Shown here one piece after another: positions 5,517 to 42,429 of a stretch of DNA of 64,000 nt (positions are counted from its first letter, which is position 1; every line of letters begins with the position of its first letter). A model generated the notes under the pieces. It saw nothing but the letters and a program-made list of their open reading frames with translations, ran no database searches and was not told where the DNA came from. Both the position numbers and the translations under genes were made by a program. This DNA is from Antedon mediterranea (lineage: Eukaryota; Animalia; Echinodermata): contig NC_092675.1 of NCBI RefSeq assembly GCF_964355755.1, forward strand, positions 14,666,912 to 14,730,911. The letters are read 5' to 3'.

Positions 5517-8500
5517 TTATACTATCATAATCTTATTTCTTAAAGCTACCCATTTTTCTATACTTGTTTCTTTATTGTTATATTTTTCACATTCAATGTT
5601 ATATAACATATTGCTTTTAAATGAATTCCATAAAGATTTACCCACTGGCTTATTTAGTGCAGATAACATTTTTATTCTATAAATAGTAAATGCTGCAAAC
5701 GTGTAAATATAATCTATTAGCTTATCTCCCGTTCCTAGTATTAATTGTTTAAATGATATATTATTGTGATTTAAACTTACAAAGATACTAAGCATTTTCC
5801 TCCAATATTTCTGAATAAATCTACGACTAAAAAACAAATGATTTTCATTTTCAATTTCTCCACATTTGTCACACGTTTGTGTTTCCTTAACTTTCCACTG
5901 ATACAGCCGTTTGTTGGTAGGCAGTATTCTATGTAACATCTTATAATTGAATTGTGCTAGTTTCTTATCTTTCATTTTACATACTTTCCGTAACCAAGAA
6001 GTTTTCCAATCAATGTTGTTATCATTGAAGTACTCTTCCCATTTTAGTTGTGACATTGGAGTAATGAAATATTCTTTCACAAACCATGAGTATATTAGTT
6101 TGGTAGTATTAATCTCATACTTGGTCCCAACTAATTCATCATTATCATCACAATTGAAAATATCTACCTCCTTAATAATACGTTTCCATTGAATTGGTAT
6201 TGCCTTAATAATGCACAAATACTCATTTAACCAGTTTGTTTTACATTGTAGTTTCACCAGTATTTCGTTTGATGTTAAAAAAGTGTTCTTATTAACAATG
6301 TCTTTAATACTGATAATGCCACTGTCAATCCAATGCTTGTAGAAAAGTGATTTTTTTTTTAGTTTAACGTAGTGGTTTCCCCACAGTTGCTCATTCATTA
6401 TATCGTTATAAGTTTCAGGGTTTTTTTTAGAGATTCTGTTATAATAATTTATGTAGGCTTTTATCATATTTTTGTAAAACAATGGAATTTTATCAGAATT
6501 AACATCAATAATGTTATAACATGACATATTAAGTAAAACATTAACATCACATATTTTTTTAATATAATACATTGGAATATTTTTCCATTTAGCACCATCA
6601 TCATTCATAATTCTTTATAACCAGCCACACATGAGTGCGTTAACATGAAGAGTAAAATCAGGCATTTTAATGCCTCCCATCTCAACATCACCAATTAGAG
6701 TTTTTCTTTTTATCTTTTCCCTTTTATTGTTCCAAATAAAATTATATATTAGATTTGTAACTTGTGTATATACATATTTTGGAACATCAGTGATATTTGC
6801 AGCATATGTTAATTTAGATAGTGCAAGACTTTTCAGGATTATTATTCTACCAAAAATTGAGAGATTTCTAGCATTCCATTGTTTTAAAGTCTTTTCTAGC
6901 TCTATTAATTTAACATCCCAGTTTTTTCTGGTACATTCTTCTGTATTATACCCTACATATATGCCTAAAATTTTGATCGGGTGTTTTACCCAATTTAATT
7001 CTAAAGGTCTATCTATTCTGTTCTTCCATTTACCAATCCAAAAAGCATTGGTTTTTTTTTTATTTAGTGTCATTCCAGATACTTCACAAAAACGTTCAAT
7101 TACACTGACTGCTGACTTAATACTTTTGTCATTACCAACATACAAAACAGTATCATCGGCTAATTGGCTTATTCTAGCTTCTATGTTATTTTCATTATTT
7201 GGAAGTTTAATACCCTTATAGTAATCTTTGTTTCTTATTCTAGATGCCATTACTTCAACCACTAAAATGAATAACAGAGCAGATAGAGGACAACCTTGTC
7301 TAATACCTCTTTCCATTTTAAAATTGTTTGAAACCCAACCATTGTTAACTGTGACACATTCAACGTTATTGTATAATACTTTTACCCAGTTACAAAAGAA
7401 CATTCCAAAGTTAAACTTTTCTAGAACATTGAACATAAAATCTCTACTAATAGAGTCCAAAGCCTTCTTAAAATCTACGGTAATTATTGCCCCTTCGATA
7501 TCATTACACTCTGTATAATAAAGCAGGTCTTCTATTAACCGAATGTTTTCACCAGCGAAACGGCCTTTTATATAACCTTTTTGGTCTGAACTTACTATTG
7601 ATTTAATAACCATTTTAAGTCTGTTACTTAATACATGTGCAAGAATTTTGTAATCGGTGTTTAAGAGGGTAATGGGACGCCAATTATTCAAATTTTCTCT
7701 TTCTCCATCCTTGAACAAAAGGGTGATTACACCTCTTTTTTGCGAAAAGGATAATTCTTGAGAATTATAACTTTCATTTAACGCATCGCAAATTAAATGT
7801 TTAATATTATTCCAAAAGAACACATAAAAGTCAACACTTAGACCATCCGATCCAGGTGTTTTATTTTTTTCCATCATTGAAATGGCCTTTTTACACTCAT
7901 CAATAGTGACGTAACCTTCACAATTTTCTTTTTCTATTTCTGAAAGCTTGTTTATAATAGAATTACAAAGGTATTTATTAATTTTTCCAGGGTTTATGAC
8001 ATTTTTTGCGTATAATCCTTCGAAATGTTGTATTTGTTCCTTTAAAATATCAATTGGGCTCGTTGCTAAGCTCCCATCTTTAGTAATTAAACTTTTTATG
8101 TGTTTCTTTTTACTTTTGGATCTTTCTAACCCAAGAAAGTATTTTGTATTCCGCTTGCCTTCCTCTATCCATTTTACTCTGGACCTAATTTGCGCGCCTT
8201 TTGCTTCTACATTATAAATGTTTTCAAGCTCTATTTTTTTGTTTTCAATTTTATTTTCAATGGTTATATCACAATTTTGAGTATTCATAATTGTTTCATT
8301 TAAGTTTTTTATTTGTTTTTGTAATTTTTCTTTCTTTTTATTCTGGTTTTTATTTTTTTTGTTTTCCGTATGCAATTGAAAATTCTTTTATTTTTGTTTT
8401 TACAAGCTCCCATAGCAAACTTGCACTTACAGGTTCTCTATTATTTTTTAGTATTGAAACATCAATTATTTTAATTACTAATTTTGTAAATGTTTCATCT

Positions 8501-9282
8501 TTCAGAAAGCTATTGTTGAACATCCATAAACCAGGACCGCGTTTTTTTTCATGCAAATCTATTTTAATTGATACCGCCTGGTGATCTGTGAGAATAGCTG
8601 GACGAATGTCACAGGCTAAAACATCTCCATTTGAAAAGAGATCTTCTGATATTAACCAGTAATCCAGCCTACGGAAAATGTTGTTAAATCTCTTACGCCA
8701 CGTAAATTGTCGCTTATTCATGTTTTTGGATCTCCAAATATCATTTAAATTTAAATTTTTCATTAGGTTTTTAATCGTAAAAACAGATTTATCAGACCTA
8801 TTTGCGCTACCTTTTTGGTCAATGTCACTATTCATGATGCAATTCAGATCTCCACCTAGAATGATAGAATTACCCTTCCCTCCATCAAAGTCATTGTAAC
8901 ATTTGTGTATGGTCCTAAAGAATGCACTTCTATTTTTGCTTTCATTAGGAGCATAAATATTTATAATGTCCAATTCCTTTTCATTTATCATTAAATTAAG
9001 AAATATATATCTTCCATCAATATCAGTTAACTTTTTAACAATTTTGCATTCAAGACCTTTTCGTAATAGTATCGACACTCCTCTACTATGTGAATTACCT
9101 ATACTATGGATCGCTTCACCTTCCCAAACAAAGTTTGATTTATTAATAATCTCATTTGTTAGATGGGTTTCCTGAAGCAGACATATATCCGCTTTTTGAT
9201 CTTTTACCCATTGGAATACCTTATGTTGCTTATTTATATTTCTAGCTCCTCTAACGTTTAGTGTTATACAATGTAAATTCAT
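5517..9282 (-). pseudogene. Tx1 ORF2 (APE endonuclease, reverse transcriptase, C-terminal zinc-binding region), disrupted
   Basis: APE motifs TLNVRG, LQETH, GGDLN, RLDY, TDH. RT motifs PGSDGL, WRPITLLNTDYK, RQGCPLS, QLADDT. One frameshift in an A/T homopolymer near 8355 and one in-frame TAA at 6615-6617. Confidence 0.9.
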
Positions 9283-9370
9283 AAGATTAGAGTAAAGAGC
9301 TTCCTTGGGAAATTACAATATTTAGAATACATATTATTAAGATTAAATTACTTGTTTTTGTTTCTCTTTC

Positions 9371-10672
9371 TTAAACTTCTTTTTTCAATACTCTTTGTTT
9401 TTTCTTCTGTCCTGCCTTCATTTCTGACTGTTCCTTCAGATCTCTTGCTGCTTTCTTGTTTGTGCTAACACTTTTACTTTTTTGCATACTTTTTTCAAAG
9501 TAGTCAGTTACCTTCTTCTGTTCATGCTCCTCTCTTTCCCCAACTTCCTGCTCCTCTCTTTCTTCAGCTTTCTGGTACTTTCTTCCCGGTACTTCTTGTT
9601 CCTCTCCTTCTTCAACTTCCTCCTCCTCTCTTTCGTCCACTTCCTGCTCTTCTCTCTGCTCCTCTCTGTCATCATCTTCCTGCTCATTTTGGTTTGTGTG
9701 TTGTTCTATAGTGATCACACTTGTTTCTTTCTGCGCATTTTCATCATCTGATGATTCACTACTTCCATCAATACTAAACACTTCATCATGTGTTTCTGTA
9801 TCAGATTGTACCGTAGCTCTTTTCCCGTAGTGGTTATCGTTAGCATTATTATTTGTTGGGTTTTCAAAGTTAAAAACCGATTCCCAAACTTTATTAATGT
9901 ATGCACCAGGTGAACCAGATGATGATACATTATGCGCTTCAACATTACATCTGTCCCTAGTATGCCCTGGTAAATGACACTTGAAACAGATTATATCAGC
10001 TTTGCATTGAAAAGCTAAATGCCCAGTCTTTGTACATTTGTTGCATTTCACTTCCTGACCGTCATGAAAAGCCCGTGCTCTAAAACCATTTATTATTATC
10101 TGTCTTGGTATTGGCGATTTTAGCTTTTCTACAACGACAGCTCTGTCACCGTTTAGCCAGCTGGTTAACTGACCATTAACCCTTATTTTTAGCCTTGTAA
10201 CATCTCCTATTGGTTTGCATCCTAGCGCTTTCAACTTGCTAGCAATCTCTACGTCAGCAACCGATAATGGTATATCCTTTATGACTATTCTCGTTGTTTC
10301 CATGTTGTTGTATGCCAAATAAGGATTTTTATCATGAATTGTAATATTACAATTCCTAATGTTTAGTCCATTCGTAATTAGTTTCACTCTATCATTTCTA
10401 TTATTTAGATAAATTCGCCATAGGTTCCGTATTTTTTGAACACCGATTATACTTTCTGCAGCAATTATTTTTAGTAGGGCTATACATAGGTCTTCATCTT
10501 TGAAAAAACTTTTTCCTGTTGGTATTTGATCAGCCTTCAAAAAGATTGGCTTCACTACACTACGTTCTTTGTTTACTGTTTGCCCGTTCATCCTGCTGAT
10601 TTTGTCACCGTCAGCCTGTGCAGCACTGTACATTCCTTTGTTAGTCCCGTTTCTATGGGTTTTTGACGCCAT
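9371..10672 (-). CDS. Tx1 ORF1 gag-like nucleic-acid-binding protein, 433 aa
   Basis: Two CCHC zinc knuckles (CNKCTKTGHLAFQC, CFKCHLPGHTRDRC), an RRM-like region (VIKDIPLSVAD...WLNGDR) and an acidic tail. ORF is intact. Confidence 0.88.
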   Translation of the reverse strand: MASKTHRNGTNKGMYSAAQADGDKISRMNGQTVNKERSVVKPIFLKADQIPTGKSFFKDEDLCIALLKIIAAESIIGVQKIRNLWRIYLNNRNDRVKLITNGLNIRNCNITIHDKNPYLAYNNMETTRIVIKDIPLSVADVEIASKLKALGCKPIGDVTRLKIRVNGQLTSWLNGDRAVVVEKLKSPIPRQIIINGFRARAFHDGQEVKCNKCTKTGHLAFQCKADIICFKCHLPGHTRDRCNVEAHNVSSSGSPGAYINKVWESVFNFENPTNNNANDNHYGKRATVQSDTETHDEVFSIDGSSESSDDENAQKETSVITIEQHTNQNEQEDDDREEQREEQEVDEREEEEVEEGEEQEVPGRKYQKAEEREEQEVGEREEHEQKKVTDYFEKSMQKSKSVSTNKKAARDLKEQSEMKAGQKKKQRVLKKEV

Positions 10673-12252
10673 TGTTTGGCTTTCACCGGGCTTAGACGTG
10701 AACGATATACAAATTGTTTTTTCCTAGTATTTCTTTCAGGTAAAAACTTCCACCTTAACAAAGACTTGGTTTAACTTGACTTATTTACTGTTTTATACTC
10801 ACTTAGAAATCAATCGAGATTTAGAAAACGTCAAATTTTAACTATATTTCAGGAGCTGTAAAAAACTATACCTTGGTTAAGTAAAATCACAACGCCCTCC
10901 TCGATTGAAATAGTTAAGTACATGTAATGATACACCACTATGACTTTTATATTCTTTGTAATTATTAATAATACTATTAAGAAGCAACTGTCAGTATTAA
11001 AGTTTAATTATGTGTAAACAGTACCACCACACTCGTAAAAAAAAATTGTGCTTTAAATGGGACACAAATGGTTTATGTATTTAATGTCAACGGTTTTTAA
11101 TTTATCCCCGAAGGGCACGTAAATTTGCCTACTTGTGTTATACCAAATGTGGGGAGAGATTGGAATGTTCCATTCATCGCCAAGCAATCCTTTGGTATAA
11201 ACGCATATTAAATCTATCAAAATAGTATTTTTTTAAAGAAAATCGGACTGTTTTCAACATTATGATGCTTTACTCGAGCTGTTCAACCGGTTTTCAGCTA
11301 TTAAAAACAATTATCCAAGGAGGAGATAGGAAAATGCGAAACATCCTCGTATTATTGTGTGCGGGTATTTTTCAAGACGGATATCCATTAGACAGTGTAT
11401 TCCACGATCGGAAAACACCCCTATTTGGGGCAAATCGTTGAACCTAAATTCGTTTTAATTGTCAATAACTAATTATCTAACTCAATTTAATTAGTAAACA
11501 GGGTTACATCAGGTGGTTAAAATCAGTAACGAAAGTACGAACCAACTTTATATACCATTGAGTAAAAATTCTAGAAATAACGCACGATTTACCGAATTTT
11601 GCCCTTACGTAAATTTATATATAGATTATGTTGTCACGCATCAGTGAGCTGACTTACCGAATACCAAAGAGAGTCGATTGAGTCCGAAACGAACCGATGG
11701 AGGAACTCTCAGTAGTATAATATCCCGTACAGTCCAATGAATAATTCATAAATTAATTAATGAATATTAATATATTAATTATGAGTGTAATTAATATGAA
11801 TGAATAATTAATTAGGGGGGTAGTTTTATGAATATTTAATAATTAAAATGGTATTATTTTTGAATAAATGAATAAATTAATTTGTTTAGCGATCTCAGTC
11901 CAATGAAGAAGTAATAAGATGTTTTAATATTCATGAATATTAATATATTTTTATTAATATGAGGGGTATTTTAATGAATAATTAGTAAATGAGTGATAGT
12001 TTTATGTATAATTTTCAAACGTAATACATGTATTACATAATGTTTAAATAAATATTTACATTTAAATATTAAAGACAATGTGCTTACCTTCATTGAGAAG
12101 TCTGATGTACAGTTTAATGAATAAAATCCACAAGTTTAATCAGCTTTGATTACTGTTTTTTATGTTTGTATAAGGAATAATAACATCAATTCGCTGTCTT
12201 TCCATGGAATTAGTTTACATGTGAGGCGTGGACAGGTCATTTTTTGTAATTC

Positions 12253-12698
12253 TGTGATTTTAGCGGGTATGTGACGTCATCCGGCAATGAACCAATAAGA
12301 TTCCTTATAAGCATAATGCTAATAAAATTAGAATTCGTTGTCCTTGTTGAGATATTCAAAGATATTAAAAGTTATTTAATTATTTTTTTAGTTTTTTATC
12401 CTTTTGTTTTTTCGTTTAGTTACATAACCGCATTATTTTTTAAGGGTATTCCTTCAATATATAAAGATGGTAATAAATAAATAAATAAAAATTAAAAATA
12501 ATGTGCTTACCTTCATTGAGAAGTCTGATAATATAGTATATTTTAATGAATAAAATCTACAAGTTTAATCAGCTTTAATTACTGCTTTTTTTATGTTTGT
12601 ATAAGAACAAAATCATAACATCAATCCGCTGTCTATTTTTTCAAATCCTGTGATTTTAGCGGGTATGTGACGTCATCAGGCAATGAACCAATAAGATT
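12253..12698 (+). promoter_or_regulatory. Duplicated CRE/ATF + CCAAT module in the Maverick terminal region (mirrored at ~22775-23220)
   Basis: TGACGTCA at 12272-12279 and 12668-12675, each followed ~13 bp later by CCAAT. Further CAGTCCAATGAA copies near 11730, 11896 and 12744. Function is inferred. Confidence 0.45.
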
Positions 12699-13023
12699 AA
12701 TCTACCAATCATAATTCGTTGTTTTTGTAAGCGTAGCGATCTCAGTCCAATGAATAAGTAATGAGATGTTTAAATATTCGTGAATATTAATATATTTTTA
12801 TTAATATGAGAGTGTTTTAATGAATACTTAGTAATTGCGTTGGTATTTATTCTAAGAATTATTGAATTAAGTATGATATATTTAAATTATTTTATTTTTA
12901 ACACGGTACCTGATTTACTATATATATATACACATTGTTAATTTGAAAACAGTACAGTTTTCCTGCTTTAGATTTTTAACATTTAGTCATCTGTTCTTTA
13001 TCCTGCTGTTATTATCTATCAGG

Positions 13024-13716
13024 ATGAATTCTACTCAAAATCAATCCGGTAGTAAGAGAGTTTTTTCTTCTTCAAAAGGACAGAGTGCTGTATCTAATCG
13101 AGTAAAGATACACAAAGTTTCACATCAACACGGCACAGCAGTACCTTCAAATTGTATGACGTGTTTAATGGCGATTCAACCCCCACCTCCAATGAACGTT
13201 GATTTCAATAATGTATCTAATACTGAAGAAGACGAACATTATAGATCGAGAATAATTTCTGAAGAGGAGAGGATTTTATACGACGACACGTCATCGGTAG
13301 TTGACTACCACCTATTTCTAGCAAGAAAAGCCGATGTAGAAGATGAGGTAAAAGATGAGGTGTTTGCAGAAGAGTACCTGAACCCTGTGCTGGAGGCGGA
13401 GATTAAGAAAGAAACTACCGAACTTGAGTACAAAGAAATAATGAGAACAATTGAGAAGGTTTTCATAGAAGAATTTATATTCATTCTGAAGGACATGGTT
13501 GAACGTTATAACTTTCACGGCTCAAGATATGAACAACTCCTAACATTTTTTCGACCAATTCTGGCATTGAAACTTGTGGACAATAGCGCTACCCATTTTG
13601 AATGGGCGCTAAACTACTTTCATTTACGTTGCATCAATGTTGATGCGTTCGATAAAGCCATAAAGTTGATTACAAATGATTCAGAACTTTTTAATAAGAT
13701 TCTTTACCAATTGTAA
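13024..13716 (+). CDS. Orphan 230-aa cargo protein (left-arm copy)
   Basis: Long open frame in very AT-rich DNA with ATG at 13024. HxH...CxxC motif, PPPP, acidic middle and helical-looking C-terminus. No family recognised. Confidence 0.65.
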   Translation: MNSTQNQSGSKRVFSSSKGQSAVSNRVKIHKVSHQHGTAVPSNCMTCLMAIQPPPPMNVDFNNVSNTEEDEHYRSRIISEEERILYDDTSSVVDYHLFLARKADVEDEVKDEVFAEEYLNPVLEAEIKKETTELEYKEIMRTIEKVFIEEFIFILKDMVERYNFHGSRYEQLLTFFRPILALKLVDNSATHFEWALNYFHLRCINVDAFDKAIKLITNDSELFNKILYQL

Positions 13717-13971
13717 TTTGTACAAATTTAAAATAATATCTTAACACTTTTTTAATTAATGTTACATAATTTTATAATTCTTATTTCTTTTCGGTAAATT
13801 TATTATTATTATGGTTATAAATTATATTGAAATAGAATGTGTGTTAAAATAAAGGTTGTGTTTTTTTCTTTTAAAAGCAACAAGAACGAAAATGAAATTT
13901 GATCTTTGCGTGTTATTTAAGTATTTGATTTATTTTTTTAATTTTCATTTGGGTGAATGAGGGTAATGAAT

Positions 13972-14203
13972 ATGAATGAGTACTTAAGAAAAGTATATTA
14001 AGATCCTAAGCATCCTGATAGTTTTGGTGGTGTGGACCGACTTTATCAAAATGTAAAAGACGATTTAAATATTACCAAGAGACAAGTTCAAGACTGACTG
14101 AACAAGCAATACATTACACACATCCATTCAACGTAAATTCAAACAAAACTGGGTACTTGTAAGTGCTATTGATGAACAATGGGGAATGGATTTGGAAAAA
14201 TAA
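13972..14203 (+). pseudogene. Maverick retroviral-like integrase, N-terminal remnant
   Basis: MNEYLRKVY*DPKHPDSFGGVDRLY...QVQD*LNKQ, then after a frameshift RKFKQNWVLVSAIDEQWGMDL. Matches the YYDP..P.SFGG / IDEQWQ.DL pattern of Polinton integrases. Confidence 0.85.
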
Positions 14204-15248
14204 CGTGTATAAAATTTGATTCAGACAAACTGTTTGCAAAATCAAAGGTTTGACTCTAGATTTCTAAAAATCAAAGGAAGTCAATTTTGAAATAGTTGGT
14301 AGCATGGTACGAGGAATCGGACTGGAAAAAATAACAACAACTAATCCTAACAAAATAAACCGTAAACCAAAATCTCACTTAATATTTATTTTTTATAAAT
14401 TTGTAAAAGTAGTTACCCTATTTTAATTCATGGTAAATTTATTTTTCGAATTAATTTAATTTGTTTTATTTTCTGTTGAATTTTTATTATTATTATGTTT
14501 GTAAAGTGTATTGCAATAGATTTGTTTAATAAAATAAATTAATTATGTTTTGACTTAATTTATGTCAGTGTAAATTTGTAAAAGTAGTTTTCCTATTTTA
14601 ATTCATGATAAGTTTATTTCTTGACTTTGCTTAATTTTTTCTTTTCTGTTAAAAGTAGAATGTGTATTGAAATACATTTTGTTTTTAACATCAACAACAA
14701 AAATGAAATTTGATCTTTGCGTGTTGTTTAACTCGTGTATGAAGTTTTTGAATTTGTTAAATGTAATTGCAAACATACATATTAAATGATTGTGATTAAA
14801 AATATTCTGTTTACTTTTTATTTTTTATTTTAAACAGTAGTATTTTTAACAGTAGTTATATTTTATATATAGGTAATATTACAAAAATAAACATACAAAA
14901 TGTATAAAGCATAGACTTATTAAATTTAAATACAATTTCTTTATTTCAAAATGAATTTCATTTTATACGTGTTTTCAATTTTAAATCTTTTAAGAAAGAC
15001 ACAATACGTACTGATATAAAAACGCACACAAAAGGAAACAAATTTGAGACGCACGGTTTGTAACGACACTTTCAATAAGAAGGAATATTATAAATGTATT
15101 TTTACCAAATTTATAAAGTAAATGTTTATTATTGAGAAATATACATTTTAGATAAATGATAACACATCTAAAATTAATTAGAGAGATCAATACAATATGG
15201 TGTTCATAATAATTTGTTTTGATGACTAGAGGAAACATCTGAAGACAT

Positions 15249-15818
15249 TCAACGAAAAACAAGCGTTAACACCATACCAGTCACTAAAAATGCCACTGCT
15301 TCGAAAAAAAACATCTCCCTTCCTACACAGAGACAAATTCTGAACGAAAATAATAAATAAAAATAATTAGTAAACAAAACACGCGCATTATAAATAATGA
15401 TGATGAATAATTTAAGAATATTTGTTAAACTACCCACGAACAAAAAACGAACCATACTAACCGACTCATCGTCATTACGAAGTTCAAATAACGAAAACTT
15501 TTCCTTGAAAAATCCACAGGAGACACGTTTTACATTTTCTAACTGCAATTCTGTGTCACATTGTGTCGCAACACATGTACATACAACGAGTCCTGTCACA
15601 AGTCTGCCGACGTTTATTTTTCTATCGCTCATCATTTGTTTTAATACATAATACAGCGCTTCCAAAGAAATATCTTTACACAATTCTAACACATTAAAAT
15701 TGTTTTCCAACTCTTTACAAGCACGAATAGCACTCTGGAGGATGGGTGAATCCAAAACAACTAACCCCGTCATTTTATATTCAATGTATGCTAAAACTAT
15801 TTCCTCTAAATCAACCAT
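15249..15818 (-). CDS. Bcl-2-family-like protein (left-arm copy)
   Basis: BH4-like IVLAYIEYKM, BH3-like AIRACKELENNF, BH1-like MMSDRKINVGRLVTGL, C-terminal hydrophobic anchor AVAFLVTGMVLTLVFR. Probable intron. Confidence 0.72.
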   Translation of the reverse strand: MVDLEEIVLAYIEYKMTGLVVLDSPILQSAIRACKELENNFNVLELCKDISLEALYYVLKQMMSDRKINVGRLVTGLVVCTCVATQCDTELQLENVKRVSCGFFKEKFSLFELRNDDESVSMVRFLFVGSLTNILKLFIIIIYNARVLFTNYFYLLFSFRICLCVGREMFFFEAVAFLVTGMVLTLVFR

Positions 15819-17218
15819 AACACTCGACAAAACAAATGATAATGGATGTAATTACCAAGAAAGTTACAACTTAAAACCTTTATTTTTGTTTTTAAAAAGA
15901 AGTTGTAACATAGAAACTAATTTTGTCAGGAAATGTGTTTTTATTATTTATGTGATTTATTTGTGTTTAGAAAGTTACAACATTAACATTTAATTTGGTA
16001 AAAAAATGTGAATATACGGAGCCGATTGTAATTTTTAATCCTTAGTATACTGAGAGATTTTATAAACAAAAAAAGAGCGAACGGAAATTAATGATTGCAG
16101 ATTAGACATATAGAAATGGATTGAAATTGGAAATCTACATGATCAAAGAAAAGAAACCCATTGTTCCGACAGAAGCTAATGACATTTACAAAGGATGACA
16201 CACTTTGAATAGAATAAATACCGTATAACATACTTAAATTTTGTCAAGATAGTTGTCAAAAATAAATAAAATATATTATACTGAATTTACTTTGTACATT
16301 TATTTAATTTAGGCCGTAATTAGGTTTGTTGTTCATTTATGATTGTGACAAAAAAAAAATACATACTAATAAAACAGCTATAGGCCTATAAAAAAAGTAA
16401 AAAAAAAAAAAAAATAATGATTCAATGTTATAATTTTATTTACCTGTCATTATGTTAATAAAACATATATAAATTTAATTTATGTCATGTTAGATATATT
16501 TTCAAGAACATTTGTTACATACAAATAATTTTGTAAAGAAATTTGTTACGTAAGATAAATTTGTTAAGAAGTTTGTTTCATAAAAATAGTTGTGAAGATA
16601 AATTTGTTAGGGCCTACATAAAAATAATTTTGTAAAGAAATTTGTTACAGAAAATTATTTTGCAAAGAATTAGTTGCATCAATTGATTTTATCAAACGTA
16701 TGTAACATAAAAAAATTATGTTGTTGAATAAAATATTTTGTAATTCAGTCCATTTGCTCAGTAGTTTGTTTAAGTTGTTAAGTCTTGTTTGTGTAATATT
16801 CTTGTAAATAAAAGAATTTACTTTTAACCTTTGTAATTATTTTGTAAATATCATTTATGCATTTTTTTTTTCGTAAATAATTGAATTTATTTATACTTTT
16901 TTTGTATGGGAATCAATATTTGTTTATACATTTAATTGTGATTATAGATTTCTTCTTTATTTAGTATGTCGATTAATTTCAGATTCAGAAACATGTTACA
17001 CAAGAAACAAAAATTGTCATGAAATTCGTTACATAAAAAAATAATTTATCAAGAATCTTTTTTTTACATAAATTTAAATTTATCATTAATTTTGTTATAA
17101 AATTTATTTTGTCATTACATTTTGTTACATAAAAAATAGTTGTTTCATGATTCTTGTTTCTTTTGTTCAGTACTTATATGAAAATTCAAGTTAAGAACGC
17201 AATGACAATGACTGGATG

Positions 17219-17398
17219 TTTAGCGTGATTAGCGGACCGCTTTTCTTCGGTAAATCGGTATTTGTTAACACTCTTTTAGAGAATAATTACTTTGACAAGT
17301 CGTTTGATGATATGACATAGTGTTATGGCGAATATCAAACTTAGTTTACGGAACTAATTACTGCAACATCTGACATAAGTTATAAGAAGGGTATACTT
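17219..17398 (+). pseudogene. Maverick packaging ATPase (FtsK/A32-like) remnant
   Basis: FSVISGPLFFGKSVFVNTLLEN...*CYGEYQ...SYKKGI: degenerate Walker A plus the WCYGEWQ-like motif. Two stops. Confidence 0.75.
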
Positions 17399-18077
17399 AT
17401 ACATTGGATGTTTTCGATGTTAGTAAATAACACAATGGTGAATAACTAGATGTTTACACCTTCACTGCTATAATTACAGTTAGAATGTCATGAAGGGTAA
17501 ATCGGTATTCTTTAAAGAATTAGGCCTATAAAACAATTAAATTGTCGAGTTGTTTGTGTTTACATGTGTGTCATAGTAGAGAATGAATTATAAAACCATT
17601 ACATTGTCGAGTTTCTTGACGTTAGAGAAGTAAATGCTGTTTGTGTTTACATGCGTGTCATAGTAGAGTTTTGTGTTTATATGCGTGTCATAGTAGAGTT
17701 TGTAATTACATTTTTTTTTCAATATAAATGTATTATATGTTATCGATAGTTGTTGAAAAAAAAAATGTAATTACAAACTCTACTATGACACGCATATAAA
17801 CACAAAACTCTACTATGACACGCATGTAAACACAAACAGCATTTACTTCTCTAACGTCAAGAAACTCGACAATGTAATGGTTTTATAATTCATTCTCTAC
17901 TATGACACACATGTAAACACAAACAACTCGACAATTTAATTGTTTTATAGGCCTAATTCTTTAAAGAATACCGATTTACCCTTCATGACATTCTAACTGT
18001 AATTATAGCAGTGAAGGTGTAAACATCTAGTTATTCACCATTGTGTTATTTACTAACATCGAAAACATCCAATGTAT

Positions 18078-18257
18078 AAGTATACCCTTCTTATAACTTA
18101 TGTCAGATGTTGCAGTAATTAGTTCCGTAAACTAAGTTTGATATTCGCCATAACACTATGTCATATCATCAAACGACTTGTCAAAGTAATTATTCTCTAA
18201 AAGAGTGTTAACAAATACCGATTTACCGAAGAAAAGCGGTCCGCTAATCACGCTAAA
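18078..18257 (-). pseudogene. Packaging ATPase remnant (right-arm mirror)
   Basis: Reverse complement of 17219-17398 with the same stops. Confidence 0.75.
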
Positions 18258-19656
18258 CATCCAGTCATTGTCATTGCGTTCTTAACTTGAATTTTCATAT
18301 AAGTACTGAACAAAAGAAACAAGAATCATGAAACAACTATTTTTTATGTAACAAAATGTAATGACAAAATAAATTTTATAACAAAATTAATGATAAATTT
18401 AAATTTATGTAAAAAAAAGATTCTTGATAAATTATTTTTTTATGTAACGAATTTCATGACAATTTTTGTTTCTTGTGTAACATGTTTCTGAATCTGAAAT
18501 TAATCGACATACTAAATAAAGAAGAAATCTATAATCACAATTAAATGTATAAACAAATATTGATTCCCATACAAAAAAAGTATAAATAAATTCAATTATT
18601 TACGAAAAAAAAAATGCATAAATGATATTTACAAAATAATTACAAAGGTTAAAAGTAAATTCTTTTATTTACAAGAATATTACACAAACAAGACTTAACA
18701 ACTTAAACAAACTACTGAGCAAATGGACTGAATTACAAAATATTTTATTCAACAACATAATTTTTTTATGTTACATACGTTTGATAAAATCAATTGATGC
18801 AACTAATTCTTTGCAAAATAATTTTCTGTAACAAATTTCTTTACAAAATTATTTTTATGTAGGCCCTAACAAATTTATCTTCACAACTATTTTATGAAAC
18901 AAACTTCTTAACAAATTTATCTTACGTAACAAATTTCTTTACAAAATTATTTGTATGTAACAAATGTTCTTGAAAATATATCTAACATGACATAAATTAA
19001 ATTTATATATGTTTTATTAACATAATGACAGGTAAATAAAATTATAACACTGAATCATTATTTTTTTTTTTTTTTTACTTTTTTTATAGGCCTATAGCTG
19101 TTTTATTAGTATGTATTTTTTTTTTGTCACAATCATAAATGAACAACAAACCTAATTACGGCCTAAATTAAATAAATGTACAAAGTAAATTCAGTATAAT
19201 ATATTTTATTTATTTTTGACAACTATCTTGACAAAATTTAAGTATGTTATACGGTATTTATTCTATTCAAAGTGTGTCATCCTTTGTAAATGTCATTAGC
19301 TTCTGTCGGAACAATGGGTTTCTTTTCTTTGATCATGTAGATTTCCAATTTCAATCCATTTCTATATGTCTAATCTGCAATCATTAATTTCCGTTCGCTC
19401 TTTTTTTGTTTATAAAATCTCTCAGTATACTAAGGATTAAAAATTACAATCGGCTCCGTATATTCACATTTTTTTACCAAATTAAATGTTAATGTTGTAA
19501 CTTTCTAAACACAAATAAATCACATAAATAATAAAAACACATTTCCTGACAAAATTAGTTTCTATGTTACAACTTCTTTTTAAAAACAAAAATAAAGGTT
19601 TTAAGTTGTAACTTTCTTGGTAATTACATCCATTATCATTTGTTTTGTCGAGCGTT

Positions 19657-20226
19657 ATGGTTGATTTAGAGGAAATAGTTTTAGCATACATTGAATATAA
19701 AATGACGGGGTTAGTTGTTTTGGATTCACCCATCCTCCAGAGTGCTATTCGTGCTTGTAAAGAGTTGGAAAACAATTTTAATGTGTTAGAATTGTGTAAA
19801 GATATTTCTTTGGAAGCGCTGTATTATGTATTAAAACAAATGATGAGCGATAGAAAAATAAACGTCGGCAGACTTGTGACAGGACTCGTTGTATGTACAT
19901 GTGTTGCGACACAATGTGACACAGAATTGCAGTTAGAAAATGTAAAACGTGTCTCCTGTGGATTTTTCAAGGAAAAGTTTTCGTTATTTGAACTTCGTAA
20001 TGACGATGAGTCGGTTAGTATGTTTCGTTTTTTGTTCGTGGGTAGTTTAACAAATATTCTTAAATTATTCATCATCATTATTTATAATGCGCGTGTTTTG
20101 TTTACTAATTATTTTTATTTATTATTTTCGTTCAGAATTTGTCTCTGCGTAGGAAGGGAGATGTTTTTTTTCGAAGCAGTGGCATTTTTAGTGACTGGTA
20201 TGGTGTTAACGCTTGTTTTTCGTTGA
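19657..20226 (+). CDS. Bcl-2-family-like protein (right-arm copy)
   Basis: Mirror of 15249-15818 with ATG at 19657. One amino-acid difference (V/F) inside the putative intron. Confidence 0.72.
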   Translation: MVDLEEIVLAYIEYKMTGLVVLDSPILQSAIRACKELENNFNVLELCKDISLEALYYVLKQMMSDRKINVGRLVTGLVVCTCVATQCDTELQLENVKRVSCGFFKEKFSLFELRNDDESVSMFRFLFVGSLTNILKLFIIIIYNARVLFTNYFYLLFSFRICLCVGREMFFFEAVAFLVTGMVLTLVFR

Positions 20227-21270
20227 ATGTCTTCAGATGTTTCCTCTAGTCATCAAAACAAATTATTATGAACACCATATTGTATTGATCTCTCTAATTA
20301 ATTTTAGATGTGTTATCATTTATCTAAAATGTATATTTCTCAATAATAAACATTTACTTTATAAATTTGGTAAAAATACATTTATAATATTCCTTCTTAT
20401 TGAAAGTGTCGTTACAAACCGTGCGTCTCAAATTTGTTTCCTTTTGTGTGCGTTTTTATATCAGTACGTATTGTGTCTTTCTTAAAAGATTTAAAATTGA
20501 AAACACGTATAAAATGAAATTCATTTTGAAATAAAGAAATTGTATTTAAATTTAATAAGTCTATGCTTTATACATTTTGTATGTTTATTTTTGTAATATT
20601 ACCTATATATAAAATATAACTACTGTTAAAAATACTACTGTTTAAAATAAAAAATAAAAAGTAAACAGAATATTTTTAATCACAATCATTTAATATGTAT
20701 GTTTGCAATTACATTTAACAAATTCAAAAACTTCATACACGAGTTAAACAACACGCAAAGATCAAATTTCATTTTTGTTGTTGATGTTAAAAACAAAATG
20801 TATTTCAATACACATTCTACTTTTAACAGAAAAGAAAAAATTAAGCAAAGTCAAGAAATAAACTTATCATGAATTAAAATAGGAAAACTACTTTTACAAA
20901 TTTACACTGACATAAATTAAGTCAAAACATAATTAATTTATTTTATTAAACAAATCTATTGCAATACACTTTACAAACATAATAATAATAAAAATTCAAC
21001 AGAAAATAAAACAAATTAAATTAATTCGAAAAATAAATTTACCATGAATTAAAATAGGGTAACTACTTTTACAAATTTATAAAAAATAAATATTAAGTGA
21101 GATTTTGGTTTACGGTTTATTTTGTTAGGATTAGTTGTTGTTATTTTTCCAGTCCGATTCCTCGTACCATGCTACCAACTATTTCAAAATTGACTTCCTT
21201 TGATTTTTAGAAATCTAGAGTCAAACCTTTGATTTTGCAAACAGTTTGTCTGAATCAAATTTTATACACG

Positions 21271-21502
21271 TTATTTTTCCAAATCCATTCCCCATTGTTC
21301 ATCAATAGCACTTACAAGTACCCAGTTTTGTTTGAATTTACGTTGAATGGATGTGTGTAATGTATTGCTTGTTCAGTCAGTCTTGAACTTGTCTCTTGGT
21401 AATATTTAAATCGTCTTTTACATTTTGATAAAGTCGGTCCACATCACCAAAACTATCAGGATGCTTAGGATCTTAATATACTTTTCTTAAGTACTCATTC
21501 AT
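21271..21502 (-). pseudogene. Maverick integrase remnant (right-arm mirror)
   Basis: Reverse complement of 13972-14203 with the same stops. Confidence 0.85.
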
Positions 21503-21756
21503 ATTCATTACCCTCATTCACCCAAATGAAAATTAAAAAAATAAATCAATACTTAAATAACACGCAAAGATCAAATTTCATTTTCGTTCTTGTTGCTTTT
21601 AAAAGAAAAAAACACAACCTTTATTTTAACACACATTCTATTTCAATATAATTTATAACCATAATAATAATAAATTTACCGAAAAGAAATAAGAATTATA
21701 AAATTATGTAACATTAATTAAAAAAGTGTTAAGATATTATTTTAAATTTGTACAAA

Positions 21757-22449
21757 TTACAATTGGTAAAGAATCTTATTAAAAAGTTCTGAATCATTTG
21801 TAATCAACTTTATGGCTTTATCGAACGCATCAACATTGATGCAACGTAAATGAAAGTAGTTTAGCGCCCATTCAAAATGGGTAGCGCTATTGTCCACAAG
21901 TTTCAATGCCAGAATTGGTCGAAAAAATGTTAAGAGTTGTTCATATCTTGAGCCGTGAAAGTTATAACGTTCAACCATGTCCTTCAGAATGAATATAAAT
22001 TCTTCTATGAAAACCTTCCCAATTGTTCTCATTATTTCTTTGTACTCAAGTTCGGTAGTTTCTTTCTTAATCTCCGCCTCCAGCACAGGGTTCAGGTACT
22101 CTTCTGCAAACACCTCATCTTCTACCTCATCTTCTACATCGGCTTTTCTTGCTAGAAATAGGTGGTAGTCAACTACCGATGACGTGTCGTCGTATAAAAT
22201 CCTCTCCTCTTCAGAAATTATTCTCGATCTATAATGTTCGTCTTCTTCAGTATTAGATACATTATTGAAATCAACGTTCATTGGAGGTGGGGGTTGAATC
22301 GCCATTAAACACGTCATACAATTTGAAGGTACTGCTGTGCCGTGTTGATGTGAAACTTTGTGTATCTTTACTCGATTAGATACAGCACTCTGTCCTTTTG
22401 AAGAAGAAAAAACTCTCTTACTACCGGATTGATTTTGAGTAGAATTCAT
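21757..22449 (-). CDS. Orphan 230-aa cargo protein (right-arm copy)
   Basis: Mirror of 13024-13716 with two amino-acid differences (K/E, E/G). Confidence 0.65.
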   Translation of the reverse strand: MNSTQNQSGSKRVFSSSKGQSAVSNRVKIHKVSHQHGTAVPSNCMTCLMAIQPPPPMNVDFNNVSNTEEDEHYRSRIISEEERILYDDTSSVVDYHLFLARKADVEDEVEDEVFAEEYLNPVLEAEIKKETTELEYKEIMRTIGKVFIEEFIFILKDMVERYNFHGSRYEQLLTFFRPILALKLVDNSATHFEWALNYFHLRCINVDAFDKAIKLITNDSELFNKILYQL

Positions 22450-23814
22450 CCTGATAGATAATAACAGCAGGATAAAGAACAGATGACTAAATGTTAAAAA
22501 TCTAAAGCAGGAAAACTGTACTGTTTTCAAATTAACAATGTGTATATATATATAGTAAATCAGGTACCGTGTTAAAAATAAAATAATTTAAATATATCAT
22601 ACTTAATTCAATAATTCTTAGAATAAATACCAACGCAATTACTAAGTATTCATTAAAACACTCTCATATTAATAAAAATATATTAATATTCACGAATATT
22701 AAAACATCTCATTACTTATTCATTGGACTGAGATCGCTACGCTTACAAAAACAACGAATTATGATTGGTAGATTAATCTTATTGGTTCATTGCCTGATGA
22801 CGTCACATACCCGCTAAAATCACAGGATTTGAAAAAATAGACAGCGGATTGATGTTATGATTTTGTTCTTATACAAACATAAAAAAAGCAGTAATTAAAG
22901 CTGATTAAACTTGTAGATTTTATTCATTAAAATATACTATAATATCAGACTTCTCAATGAAGGTAAGCACATTATTTTTAATTTTTATTTATTTATTTAT
23001 TACCATCTTTATATATTGAAGGAATACCCTTAAAAAATAATGCGGTTATGTAACTAAACGAAAAAACAAAAGGATAAAAAACTAAAAAAATAATTAAATA
23101 ACTTTTAATATCTTTGAATATCTCAACAAGGACAACGAATTCTAATTTCATTAGCATTATGCTTATAAGGAATCTTATTGGTTCATTGCCGGATGACGTC
23201 ACATACCCGCTAAAATCACAGAATTACAAAAAATGACCTGTCCACGCCTCACATGTAAACTAATTCCATGGAAAGACAGCGAATTGATGTTATTATTCCT
23301 TATACAAACATAAAAAACAGTAATCAAAGCTGATTAAACTTGTGGATTTTATTCATTAAACTGTACATCAGACTTCTCAATGAAGGTAAGCACATTGTCT
23401 TTAATATTTAAATGTAAATATTTATTTAAACATTATGTAATACATGTATTACGTTTGAAAATTATACATAAAACTATCACTCATTTACTAATTATTCATT
23501 AAAATACCCCTCATATTAATAAAAATATATTAATATTCATGAATATTAAAACATTTTATTACTTCTTCATTGGACTGAGATCGCTAAACAAATTAATTTA
23601 TTCATTTATTCAAAAATAATACCATTTTAATTATTAAATATTCATAAAACTACCCCCCTAATTAATTATTCATTCATATTAATTACACTCATAATTAATA
23701 TATTAATATTCATTAATTAATTTATGAATTATTCATTGGACTGTACGGGATATTATACTACTACTCTCGTACAGAAAAAAAAATCGCCCCCCCCCCCCTC
23801 CCCCCGCCTGTTGG

Positions 23815-23943
23815 AATCACTTCTCAGTGGAGTACGTCCTCTAGCCTTCGGCTTTACCTCACTGCCTGTCACTCACAGTCACACACAACCAGTTAGATGT
23901 AAAGCCGAAGGCTAGAGGGCGTACTCCAGACTGAAAAGTGATT
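23815..23943. repeat. ~130-bp hairpin MITE-like element
   Basis: AATCACTT-CAGT-GGAGTACG-CCTCTAGCCTTCGGCTTTAC pairs with GTAAAGCCGAAGGCTAGAGG-CGTACTCC-ACTG-AAGTGATT. Confidence 0.6.
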
Positions 23944-25754
23944 GATCTGGCAATGCTGGCAAGGAGAGAAAGCAAAGGTGTTATCAGGATTGTTGACGCA
24001 ATCTAGAGATGTATATACGTATAATTTGTCAAATCACTCGCAATTTCTTGATTTTTTAGTCGATAGTGTAAATAAAATTGGTACATAATGTCAATAATGA
24101 TTTTAAGCACCTAATGAAAAACAATAACACTTATTATTACGTTTAGTTGAGCAATTAGTTGTTGACATTAACACAAATTTAGGTTTAACTATTTGTGATA
24201 ACTATTTGGTGGAAAATTAAACACAGAGGACGTATTTGTGATTAAATTGTTATTGATTTATTACAAAACATAGTGGGCGCTATATATTTTTTATAAATGT
24301 ATTGTGTATTGTCTCCGAGTGGAAAAGTTGTAGCAAATAATCAGCTCGCGAATTAAGAGTTATCGAATGGAACACCTATCCAAGTTTTCATAATATGTTC
24401 GTAATTGAGGGAAAGCAACTTAAAGGTGTATTTTCTCCCAAAAATATGAATAATGAGGATTAATAAACAAAATAAGACTTTGAATAGTCCATTTCTTATT
24501 TTTATAACGTGAATTACGAGTACATTCAACAATAAATCCTTAATGTTTTTTCAGGTAAATAATTTTGTGCGATCCAATTTAGTCAAAGAAAATAATTATT
24601 AAATGTTTTTTAAATGGCTTATTCAACAAATACATTGCTAAAAATTGTTTTTTTTTTTCAGGGGGACAATTAGGCCTATCATAAACTTGAGTTCTGTCAA
24701 AAACTAGTTTGACAAAAAGTGTGATTTGCCCAAATATGGTAGTGATATATTTAGTAATGGTAGTGATATGACATCATCATATTCATATGTAACCTTTAGG
24801 CCTACTATTACACAACCTGCAAAACACAAAAAAACTCAAACTCGTATAGAAGTGTAAGAAATTGCTTTTTTTGTGTTGCTCACTTAAGACTCTGACTGCG
24901 AATGGTCTTCCTGACCATTTGCAACAAAAACGAGTCAAACAAGTATAGAAGTGTAAGAAATTGCTTTTTTGGTGTTGCTCACTTAAGCGAATGGTCTTCT
25001 TGACACTTTTCATTTGAATGTCCTGCGTTCAATGAGATAAGGACCGATGAAAATACAAGGTTATAGTTTCAACTGCAATTATTTGATTACAATGAAATTT
25101 CGGAGTTATTCATTAATGGCAACACTGACGTTAAATTATATCTTACTCTGGGAAGTGAAAATTATCTCTTCAGCAAGGAAGTTATGAATATTTTTGATAG
25201 GTTTTGTAAAGCACATGTTAAAAGATTATGGAAAAAATAGATAAATTAAGAGGCGTCTGGTTCTGTATTGCAGTGTAATTTTGTAATAGTAAAATTAGGT
25301 TTAGTTTTTTAGATAACTAATTGTTTAAAAGTGTCTGTTAATTGTTTTCGTCATAATAATTCTTTTACTTTTGCCTATTTATATTTGTATAAACAGTTAC
25401 TGTAAATACAATAGTGACTCCATGTTTTCCCTTTTTTTTAAAGCAGGTATGCATATTAACAGTTATGGTCTAAGTGGTTGCCTTTTTAATTAAGTAGCGG
25501 TGGTGGTGAACAGACTTGTTGTTTTTTTTGCTCGCTCACCAGGCCTCATCCTAACAAATGCCAATGGCCTCGCTACTCGAATCAACTCCAGACATGGAAG
25601 AATCTGACGATGCTGTTTTAAAAGCAATTCATACTGCTTTATCTGAATCGACAAAAGCTTCACCTATAACAAAACTACGAAGTGGAAAAGATACCGGACC
25701 AACTTAGACGCGGTGCTGTCCAAGGTTATTTCTACAATTCAACCTATGCTAATT

Positions 25755-31346: not shown

Positions 31347-32210
31347 TTACAACGCTGTATTTGACAAAGTTATGTGGTTCGACCATCGTCCAAAAGTCAT
31401 AATGTCTTGGTGAGAGTGTCCAAGTTGGTGAAGGTCGGTAGCTCGACCGATTCTGAAAGAATGAGTGTTAAACTGTGTATGTTCCAGACTAGCATGGCGA
31501 GCTAATTGTTTAAGCGACGAGGAAAACATTTTCCTATTTACTGGTGTTCCATTTTTAAGCAGGAAGAACGGGCCTGCCTTCAGTGGTCGCATCTTGACGT
31601 AGCGTTGCAATGCTCTCACTGGGCATATTGGGCTTCCGGATTTTTTTGTGCAAGACGAAAAGGAGGTGAGGAACGCTTAGAGTGTTTGAAAGATTTGAAG
31701 TTTATTTGGACTTTAGTAGCATGTACTGTGATATCAGTTAGCATTAGTGTGTGTTCTGCGGCCTTGGAGACTACTGCTTCACTGGCTCTGAGGCATGCGA
31801 AGTAACATATTATGAACAAGGCTCTGTAGAGGATGAATTCGTATTTGGATTTCATGCTACCTCGCATATGTCCAATTAGCGTTACAAGAATATCGGAGGT
31901 GACCGGCGGTCTGATCGGTTTGGATGGAGAGTTCGTTTTTTTGTTTTGCTACTCCTCTGCATAAATTGCTGACTGCTGGATTTGCCGTAGGGTCTTCCAT
32001 AAATGATACCCTGTGCACGAATGACATTGCGCTAAGGTAGTTTCGAATCGTGGAAATCGCCAGTGCATTTTTAGTCAGCTTACTTACATAGAGAACAATT
32101 GTCTGTGGAGTCGCTGGTAGCGGAAGGCTTAGTGATTTCCTGAATTGGTTAAAATGGTGCCATTTGCTTTTATAGTTACTAGCGGTTCTTTTGCTTAATG
32201 AGTTCCACAT
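31347..32210 (-). pseudogene. Ngaro tyrosine recombinase (frameshifted)
   Basis: N-terminal TASNY..W..F, TIRNYLSAMSFVH. Catalytic FACLRASE, HSK, THSFRIGRAT, GRWS. Confidence 0.88.
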
Positions 32211-33500
32211 TAGCTCTCGTGTGAGGATCTTGAGTTGTTTAGTGGTTCGAAGTAGATTGGTTGTAAGTGCTTTGGTATCTTTAGCGGTGTGCGGTTCATA
32301 CTGTGCTCCTCTAGCATGGCCTCCGTTTCCTGAAAACGAGAAAGAGCGTCACGTATCCTGTTTTGCTTACCAGGGATGTGCCTGGCTGTAAACTCAATGT
32401 TGTTTAGTAGTAACAAAAGGACGATAGCGCGAACCACTCTCATGACCTTTTCGTTTGATGACGATTTTTTGTTAAGCACATATACATCAGCTAGGTTATC
32501 ACAGTGGAAAACTACATGGGTGTTGGCTAGCTGTTTTGCAAAAATCGAAAGCATGACATAGATGGGGTAAATTTCGAGAACCATGATGTCGAACATTTTC
32601 CAAGATTCCGGCCAGCGGCCTTGAATCCAGAACTTTTGGAAGGTCGCACCCAGTGCGGTTTTTGAGGCATCAGAGGAGAAATGTAAACGCTGCGAGTCAA
32701 ATTTTTGTGGAGGTGAAAAATGGTAACGCCATTGTGTTTGCTAAGAAAGTCGACCCAAATTTGGAGATCCTCCTTTGCTGAGTCAGAAAGGTGAATAGTT
32801 GAAAAGGGGTTAGTTAGATCGGCCGTTAGGGCATAAAGCCTTCTTAGGAACGCCAGTCCAGAGGGTATAACCCAGGAGGCAAATTGTAGCTTTTCAAGGA
32901 GATTGGAGGGCTCTCAATGTAGTTGAATGAAGTTTTGAACTTTAAAGGGAGTAACGTAATTTTATTATCTCAGATGGAAGCCTGTCTTACATTTTCTGTA
33001 AATCAAGTTCAATACCCAGGAAAGAAATGGTGGTGGTGGGTGAAATTGTTTTGTGCGGTGCTAGAGGTATGCCAAAGCGGTCAGCAAGCGCTTTGGATAT
33101 CTTCAAGGAGTTCGCACACAGTTGGTGTGTGTCTTCAATGACGAGGATGTCGTCTAATATTTTCACGTTATTGGGCTGTTGTAACTTTTTTGTAAGGAAA
33201 ACTTATTGAATATTTGACACGAAGATCCGCCGCCTTGGGGAAGCGTTTTATCGTAGTAATACTGGCCTAACCACGTGAGACCTGTGAGGTGATATTGAGT
33301 GGGATGTAAATGTATTAGTCTGTATGCGTCACTGGTGTCCGTCTTAGCCATGAATGCCGGGTGATTGTATATGTCAATTATGTCTATTGCGTTGGCAATT
33401 GTTTCGTAATGAACTGTTATGCAAAACCCAGGGATGTTGTGATTGACAGCGTTTGAGTCGTAGGGATAGGAGAGGTTGTGGAGGATACGACATTTTTCAG
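32210..33500 (-). pseudogene. Ngaro RT/RNase H (disrupted)
   Basis: HNLSYP, MAKTDTSDAYR, YYDKTLPQG, ILDDI. RNase H SDAS, LEIYPI, FHCDN, HIPGKQN.IRDALSR. Confidence 0.85.
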
Positions 33501-41700: not shown

Positions 41701-42429
41701 TGTTGACTAAATTTATCTTTATATGAATACCACACTTTAAAATTAGGATTTATAAGTACTTTCAGACGGAGAAACGCATAAAAACAAATAAATAAATCCT
41801 TTAAATTGATGATTTTACAGACATGTTTCTTTGTATACTGTAACTCCTCGAGCTCCCCCCATGCTCAATGTTTTTTTTTCTATGGAGCGCCAAAAGAGCA
41901 ACAATAATAGTACAAGTATAAAAACAGAAAGAAAACGAAACAAATCATGATTTTTAAATTAAAATGTATTTGCCAGTATTTATTTCTTCGTACTTGCAGG
42001 ATTATACTATTATCATTACAATTTTAATGTTACATTGTTCCATCCACACTGTAGATGGACTCCACGGAGTTTTCAGCCCTCTATATAATTTTTGCTCTTT
42101 TGACGTTCCATAGAAACAAAAACATTGAACATGGTAGGCCTACAACTGCTACTGTACTGTAGGCTAGTCATGCGAAATTCGCAAACAGTTTGTGTGCGAG
42201 AAAAACGTCTGTAAAATCATCAATTTAAAAATGTATTTGTTACTTTTTATGTGATTCTTTTTCATAAAAGTGCCAATTCTAAGGTGTGGTATTCAGAATA
42301 AATGTTGGGAGTTAAAATACAAGGCAGGTGCGAAAGATAAATATTGTAATCTTTGGTCTTGGGTATTAGCTTTCGTGATCTTAGGTCTTAGGGGGTCTAA
42401 GCTTTCGTGGTCTTAGGTTTCGTGACACC
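38732..42429. mobile_element. Three copies of a ~1.06-kb MULE-like MITE (38732-39820, 40067-41125, 41372-42429)
   Basis: TIR GGGTGTCACGAAACCTAAGA with CTAAGA subrepeats. 10-bp TSD CTGTTTATAC around copy 1. 1305-bp period. Confidence 0.8.
39862..39893. mobile_element. 32-bp P-type mini-element/footprint (duplicated at 41167-41198)
   Basis: CATAGAGATATTAT-CACT-ATAATATCTCTATG flanked by 7-bp ATAAAAC direct repeats. Confidence 0.7.

Follow-up and report, generated by a model that had tools for sequence, protein, structure and literature searches.

What kind of gene is the 189-codon frame that lies open on the plus strand at 19657–20226 of this window (the whole 64-kb stretch of Antedon mediterranea DNA that was analysed), and what carries it? 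An earlier inspection of the letters (hereafter the sequence-only reading) had taken it for a duplicated and possibly novel Bcl-2-like cargo gene of a defective Maverick, with BH4-, BH3- and BH1-like segments in order and a C-terminal membrane anchor. As described there, BH1 reads NVGR (codons 69–72), GGW is absent from the frame, and the last 19–21 residues are hydrophobic (hydropathy 2.18). The order of the BH segments stood in part. A BH4-like helix and BH1 were recognisable; against the motif consensus used for comparison (Leu and Gly-Asp in BH3, GGW in BH2), the BH3-like segment lacked Leu and Gly-Asp and the BH2 region lacked GGW, both being degenerate. According to the accessible text of PMC7022251, BH motifs can be missing in viral Bcl-2 members.

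The Pfam profile PF00452, a check proposed earlier, matched the whole frame (E 2.8e-4, 21.8 bits) and codons 1–119 (E 1.1e-4, 23.1 bits), for which it was the only Pfam family at E up to 1, but both scores stayed below the gathering score of 31.4 bits. The sole match in a sequence search of the PDB was fowlpox FPV039 (E 0.13–0.3). The ESM Atlas placed Bcl-2 first (0.93, 218 of 256 features) with the best ten family matches all in one clan (10/10), at a recognition of 1783, below 2300. A single-sequence model of codons 1–119 contained six helices (pLDDT 51) and, at this low confidence, a helical bundle around a central helix 5. When this predicted model was compared with the PDB by Foldseek, as had also been proposed, all 46 of the 46 matches listed belonged to the Bcl-2 family (probability 0.99–1.00, TM 0.53–0.70), and none of those listed reached E 0.001. 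VIA, which served as a second look only, gave Bcl-2 family members in 50 of the 50 matches listed (best Z 13.1, rmsd 2.2, 111 residues aligned; for helical bundles, a Z of about 13 lies at the borderline) and placed model residues 1–116 on residues 8–197 of Bcl-2. Identity to the structural matches was 11–20%, and the top BFVD matches were BALF1, E1B-19K and F1L. The model of all 189 residues was weaker (pLDDT 48, best E 1.0, TM under 0.32). Each of these lines is modest, they agree with one another, and the Bcl-2 likeness is beyond chance; codons 1–119 are predicted to adopt the Bcl-2 fold. Sequence homologues of the 189-residue product were absent from the 58 candidates examined at E 0.01 (lengths 103–331), from 1.84 billion representatives at E 0.001, from viral and metagenome contigs, and from 963 frames of 63 loci with a Polinton integrase at E 1. 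Hence, no tree against host paralogues could be built.

Codons 120–160 are predicted to be an intron, and the frame was divided as follows.

19657–20013, plus strand: predicted exon 1, codons 1–119, with BH4, the BH3-like segment, BH1 and the degenerate BH2 region
20014–20135, plus strand: predicted 122-nt spliceosomal intron, codons 120–160, from splice signals, composition and indels
20136–20226, plus strand: predicted exon 2, the hydrophobic tail

The candidate donor (G/GTTAGT, phase 0) was the best of 10 GT donors. The candidate acceptor, CAG behind a T-rich tract with 12 of 15 pyrimidines, was the best of five AGs, and a TACTAAT branch motif, the only one within the scanned 20061–20135, lies at 20103, 26 nt upstream of the acceptor. 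The composition of the stretch (24% GC, 53% T) is like that of the non-coding flanks, as compared with 36% GC before it and 40% after it. Nine indel rows were obtained from related contigs. Five fell inside 20014–20135 (X5 and X10 contigs) and two in the T-run 20164–20171, counted as exon 2; the two from X12 (19786 and 20113) were left out, being matches under 45 nt of low identity that became unlike thereafter. No indel was seen in exon 1 among the X5, X10 and X15 contigs of this comparison. The clustering in the predicted intron gave p of about 0.003–0.01, with X10, X12 and X15 contributing small shares of partial cover. An open read-through of the 122 nt is uncommon but within chance, a few-percent coincidence: 5.6% of 20,000 shuffles of the stretch were free of stops. 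These sequence features suggested that the hydrophobic middle is probably an intron read through, so that the 189-codon frame, although open as stated earlier, is probably not the real protein.

The predicted intron lies directly 3′ of the stretch coding for the globular domain. Since model residues 1–116 align to residues 8–197 of Bcl-2, the globular domain would be encoded entirely by exon 1 and the tail by exon 2. Cellular Bcl-2 genes share a conserved phase-0 intron in BH2. In cellular pro-survival genes, as outlined in the available part of PMC7022251, the BH motifs normally lie on one exon and the TM anchor on another, and the order of a BH4-to-BH2 exon followed by a tail exon probably represents this layout.

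A near-identical second copy exists, as the sequence-only reading had noted; it is, however, a mirror image within one palindrome and not a gene duplication. The segment 11711–23762 (12,052 bp) is a single palindrome of two arms of about 6 kb and a 37-nt spacer.

11705–11710: left target-site duplication, ACTCTC, 6 bp
11711–17719: left arm, 6,009 bp, beginning AGTAGT
15249–15818, minus strand: mirror of the Bcl-2-like gene in the left arm, differing at 2 bases
17720–17756: unpaired, asymmetric 37-nt spacer, the foldback centre
17757–23762: right arm, 6,006 bp, ending ACTACT
23763–23768: right target-site duplication, ACTCTC, 6 bp

The arms share 99.75% identity, with 12 substitutions and three one-base indels. 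An independent duplication of the gene was ruled out, as every feature of the arm is mirrored. The sequences outside the two ACTCTC duplications differ from each other, and no empty site for the insertion was found within the window. The clean target duplication and the 0.2% divergence of the arms point to a recent insertion, unless the arms have been homogenised. A contig from run X5 has a joint at 17736, within the spacer, with a shorter side of 67 letters. No Rfam match was found in 11500–24000. The AT-rich end of the arm (11887–12840) contains internal direct repeats (108 bp at 91% and about 260 bp at 74%), possibly subterminal origin or promoter repeats.

The Maverick signature consists of 5′-(AGT)2//(ACT)2-3′ ends and a 6-bp target duplication, and intact vertebrate Mavericks have inverted repeats of 46–1,447 bp and intronless genes (PMC8097293, accessible text). 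Of the (AGT)2 or (AG)3 ends that accompany terminal inverted repeats in Mavericks/Polintons, the palindrome carries the former, and ACTCTC on each side provides the 6-bp duplication. The arms also contain remains of core genes.

13972–14194, plus strand: N-terminal piece of a Polinton rve integrase, broken by stops and a frameshift
21280–21502, minus strand: mirror of the integrase piece
14223–14369, plus strand: weak scrap of protein-primed DNA polymerase B (pPolB), E 3e-4 in the window and 0.01 in the mirror arm
17225–17395, plus strand: broken Walker-A piece of an A32-type packaging ATPase
about 18084–18254, minus strand: mirror of the ATPase piece

The integrase piece shows 71% identity to an rve protein (P0001), which as a query yielded the 63 metagenome loci with a Polinton integrase. 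One of these, locus L005 (384–15912), a metagenome contig that served as control, contains a complete Polinton of 15.5 kb, with AGTAGT ends, the 6-bp duplication AGCAGA, and genes for pPolB, A32 ATPase and integrase. Three of the 11 profiles seeded with L005 matched the element (integrase, ATPase and pPolB); the other eight gave no match under E 0.3 within the window. Intact pPolB and rve integrase are absent from the element, which holds only broken pieces of 50–75 codons. The capsid module (ATPase, protease, major and minor capsid) is represented by the ATPase scrap only, and no ORF of at least 100 aa is present in the element besides the Bcl-2-like frame and a 230-aa cargo frame. The Maverick ends, the 6-bp duplication and the core-gene scraps therefore identify the element as a non-autonomous Maverick/Polinton derivative. 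Thus, the Bcl-2 fold and the defective Maverick of the sequence-only reading were supported, while the predicted intron and the build as a single palindrome had been overlooked.

In this copy the predicted intron is 122 nt long, so its removal leaves the tail exon out of frame. The reading frame breaks within the T-run 20164–20171, where an indel distinguishes both arms from the X5 and X15 contigs. From its sequence this copy is probably damaged by a frameshift in the tail exon after the predicted splicing; because the tail would stay in frame if the intron were retained or the weaker 135-nt splice pair were used, the damage is probable rather than certain. Related copies occur in the 16 runs listed, four of them with half or more of the words, and were confirmed by contigs in three organisms (A, B and C). 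None of these 16 runs is listed as RNA; X5 is guessed to be, but its contigs run over the predicted intron and non-coding DNA and no splice joint was listed among the contigs compared over the gene, which speaks neither for nor against expression. In X1 and X6 the contig depth over the gene was far above that of the flank, depth being no measure of copy number. One X5 contig joins position 17736 of the spacer to position 20078 of the predicted intron at a depth of 123, as against 47 for the contig of exon 1; a variant without exon 1 seems to exist in X5.

The Bcl-2-like gene could be a dead passenger that was useful only to an autonomous ancestor and works in no copy of the palindromic family, having survived owing to its place near the left end and the youth of the family. 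The probable frameshift of this copy is consistent with this, and the arms, only 0.2% apart, leave little time for decay. At the six exon-1 sites where all four runs differ from this copy, there were five replacements and one silent change, a 5:1 split as drift would give. X5 and X6 also hold deleted copies: joints in their contigs skip 19778–19913 and 19972–20293, and 13 gap letters interrupt exon 1 of X6 record 18. On the other side, exon 1 carries no stop or indel, whereas the integrase, polymerase and ATPase scraps of the same arm carry several, and two X5 contigs that are about 18–19% diverged (records 14 and 15) align to exon 1 without gaps for 57 and 90 nt, respectively. Among the exon-1 variant sites listed, 7 of 20 were synonymous against 20% expected (p 0.09), an excess of silent changes that is not significant in a rough test of hand-classed sites drawn from 40 of 257 variant rows and 6 of 17 differences of X5 record 15. 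Hence, the earlier proposal that an apoptosis gene was kept while the replication genes were lost is borne out by gene content, but not by this test of purifying selection. Taken with the two gap-free X5 contigs, purifying selection on the gene in the family is suggested, and we regard the dead passenger as unlikely.

A further possibility is that the product is the unspliced 189-residue protein, or that of the weaker in-frame splice (GT 20018, AG 20152), and that this copy is intact with a membrane tail. The frame is open through the tail, the 135 nt of 20018–20152 are divisible by three, and the genes of intact vertebrate Mavericks are described as intronless in the accessible text of PMC8097293. 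The composition of 20014–20135 is nevertheless non-coding, and the model of 189 residues matches Bcl-2 less well than that of codons 1–119. In X5 record 20, the only related contig across the region, the net length of the indels is not divisible by three and the 189-codon frame is lost; in X5 record 21 the AG at 20152 is missing. An intact, unspliced or alternatively spliced copy is therefore improbable.

We favour, with moderate confidence, an inserted, non-autonomous 12-kb palindromic Maverick, each arm of which contains a likely two-exon, likely host-captured gene for a protein of predicted Bcl-2 fold, likely pro-survival at the level of the family and probably damaged here. The gene was likely captured from an animal host. 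As no cellular or viral homologue was found, the case for host capture comes from the gene layout, and the combination of intronless genes in intact vertebrate Mavericks with an intron here points to capture as genomic DNA. A Maverick would first have acquired, from genomic DNA and with its intron, a pro-survival Bcl-2 gene of cellular origin, and most core genes would then have been lost by deletion. During protein-primed strand-displacement copying, the polymerase would have folded back at a point some 6 kb inside one end to give a copy-back genome with the identical terminus at both ends. The palindrome has the form of such a product: an identical terminus at both ends, a self-complementary body and a small loop. 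Because both ends share the terminus, the pPolB and integrase of a helper Maverick, an element not seen here, could have copied and inserted the palindrome in trans.

In intact relatives, the product of splicing would be anchored by its tail and, with a groove that retains the BH1 Gly-Arg, would engage Bax/Bak or the BH3 motifs of the host; cells supporting replication of the element or its helper would thereby die later. Nearly all viral Bcl-2 proteins that inhibit apoptosis are tail-anchored, as reported in the available text of PMC5691641. From the sequence motifs, namely the retained BH1 Gly-Arg and the absent canonical BH3, we infer that the protein would be better suited to receiving BH3 motifs than to killing. 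A Bcl-2 fold put to a non-apoptotic or pro-death role, like that of the poxviral NF-kB modulators, or to that of an addiction factor, appears very unlikely. The loss of the BH3 and BH2 signatures and the poxviral Bcl-2-fold proteins in the lower ESM Atlas and BFVD matches are in line with it, and functions outside the groove are on record (PMC7022251, accessible part), but the BH1 Gly-Arg, BH4-like helix and tail anchor typify the apoptosis-inhibiting forms (PMC5691641, accessible part). Most of the top VIA matches were pro-survival proteins, albeit a group that is abundant in the PDB, and the missing canonical BH3 speaks against a role in promoting death (PMC7022251, accessible part).

Near-perfect long palindromes are a familiar artefact of long reads and no raw read or related contig was seen to cross the centre, but both ends stop exactly at the Maverick terminus, the flanks differ, the 6-bp duplication is perfect, the arms differ by 12 substitutions and the spacer is asymmetric, so that an assembly or foldback-read artefact made from a one-armed remnant is barely credible.

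The inserted palindromic Maverick was then compared with known systems. Homologues of Bcl2 and IAP have been observed in adintoviruses (Polinton/Maverick) by Starrett et al. 2021 (PMC8502044, accessible text), so the cargo is known in kind and that part is ordinary; the palindromic build is the less ordinary part. Both cases show a Bcl-2-family accessory gene on an animal Polinton-type element. Unlike the adintovirus case as presented in that text, the carrier here is palindromic and without an intact core gene, and an intron probably interrupts the gene; splicing goes unmentioned in the main text of PMC8502044, as far as accessible. With autonomous Mavericks/Polintons (PMC8097293, accessible text, and L005), the element has in common the ends, the 6-bp duplication, and an integrase, pPolB and A32 ATPase ancestry, but in place of repeats of 46–1,447 bp its repeat measures 6 kb and makes up 99.7% of the element, with the core genes reduced to scraps. 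FPV039, E1B-19K, BALF1/BHRF1 (EBV) and ASFV A179L share with the gene the predicted fold, low identity, eroded BH motifs and, as predicted here, a tail anchor (PMC5691641, accessible text); the probable intron sets it apart from these viral pro-survival proteins, and the likeness is one of predicted fold.

In AAV genomes of the copy-back or snap-back type, one end is likewise copied back to give a self-complementary, helper-dependent molecule (PMC11575299, accessible part). The product here differs in being integrated with a target duplication and in belonging to a family found in several organisms, and the mechanism proposed above is drawn by analogy. The Burro giant LTR retrotransposons of planarians are also mobile elements with a BCL2-like motif, but they are retroelements in which the motif is a polyprotein domain (PMC6431247, accessible part). 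In the accessible text of the Halocafeteria preprint the palindromes are short and terminal only, that of PMC5499653 gives Tlr1 only and no whole-element palindromic Maverick, and "bcl" is absent from the main text of Buck et al. (PMC11071296). No whole-element palindromic Maverick was found in the literature searched, most subscription papers, including the original Polinton/Maverick descriptions, lying outside the search.

If the intron in its cellular position is real, it would show that Mavericks take up host genes in their genomic form and continue to splice them, contrary to the rule that intact Mavericks are intronless. A protein-primed copy-back product should look like a palindrome of the whole element flanked by a clean target duplication; such palindromes may therefore be genomic fossils of Maverick replication, by which the strand-displacement model becomes testable. 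Should selection on the gene within the gutted family be borne out, the element would be a satellite that interferes in the death of host cells. We advance only tentatively, as a doubtful extension with the arm-by-arm check of the palindrome covering one insertion only, the wider proposal that palindromic copy-back Maverick satellites without replication genes, in several animal species, keep a selected, host-derived and spliced pro-survival Bcl-2 gene that spares cells while the helper copies.

The second long frame of the arm was also investigated.

13024–13716, plus strand: 230-aa orphan ORF
21757–22449, minus strand: mirror copy of the 230-aa ORF

Profile and sequence searches, including the frames of the 63 Polinton-integrase loci, gave no match to this ORF. 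Over 21757–22449, the long contigs listed from X5, X6 and X9 are gap-free, and the ORF may be a second retained cargo gene. An acceptor-like pyrimidine tract with AG lies directly 5′ of its ATG.

Several other features were observed in the window. A short inverted repeat at 23815–23943, just right of the target duplication and very deep in three runs, is probably a MITE. At 5517–10672 on the minus strand lies a near-complete L1/Tx1-like LINE, with a zinc-knuckle ORF1, endonuclease and reverse transcriptase across several frames. Integrase SAM-like and RNase H-like pieces at 31857–32596 on the minus strand are probably a decayed DIRS-type element. A 1,305-bp unit is present in three tandem copies (38776–42429), and a 30-bp tandem array at 61103–62353 yields spurious ORFs.
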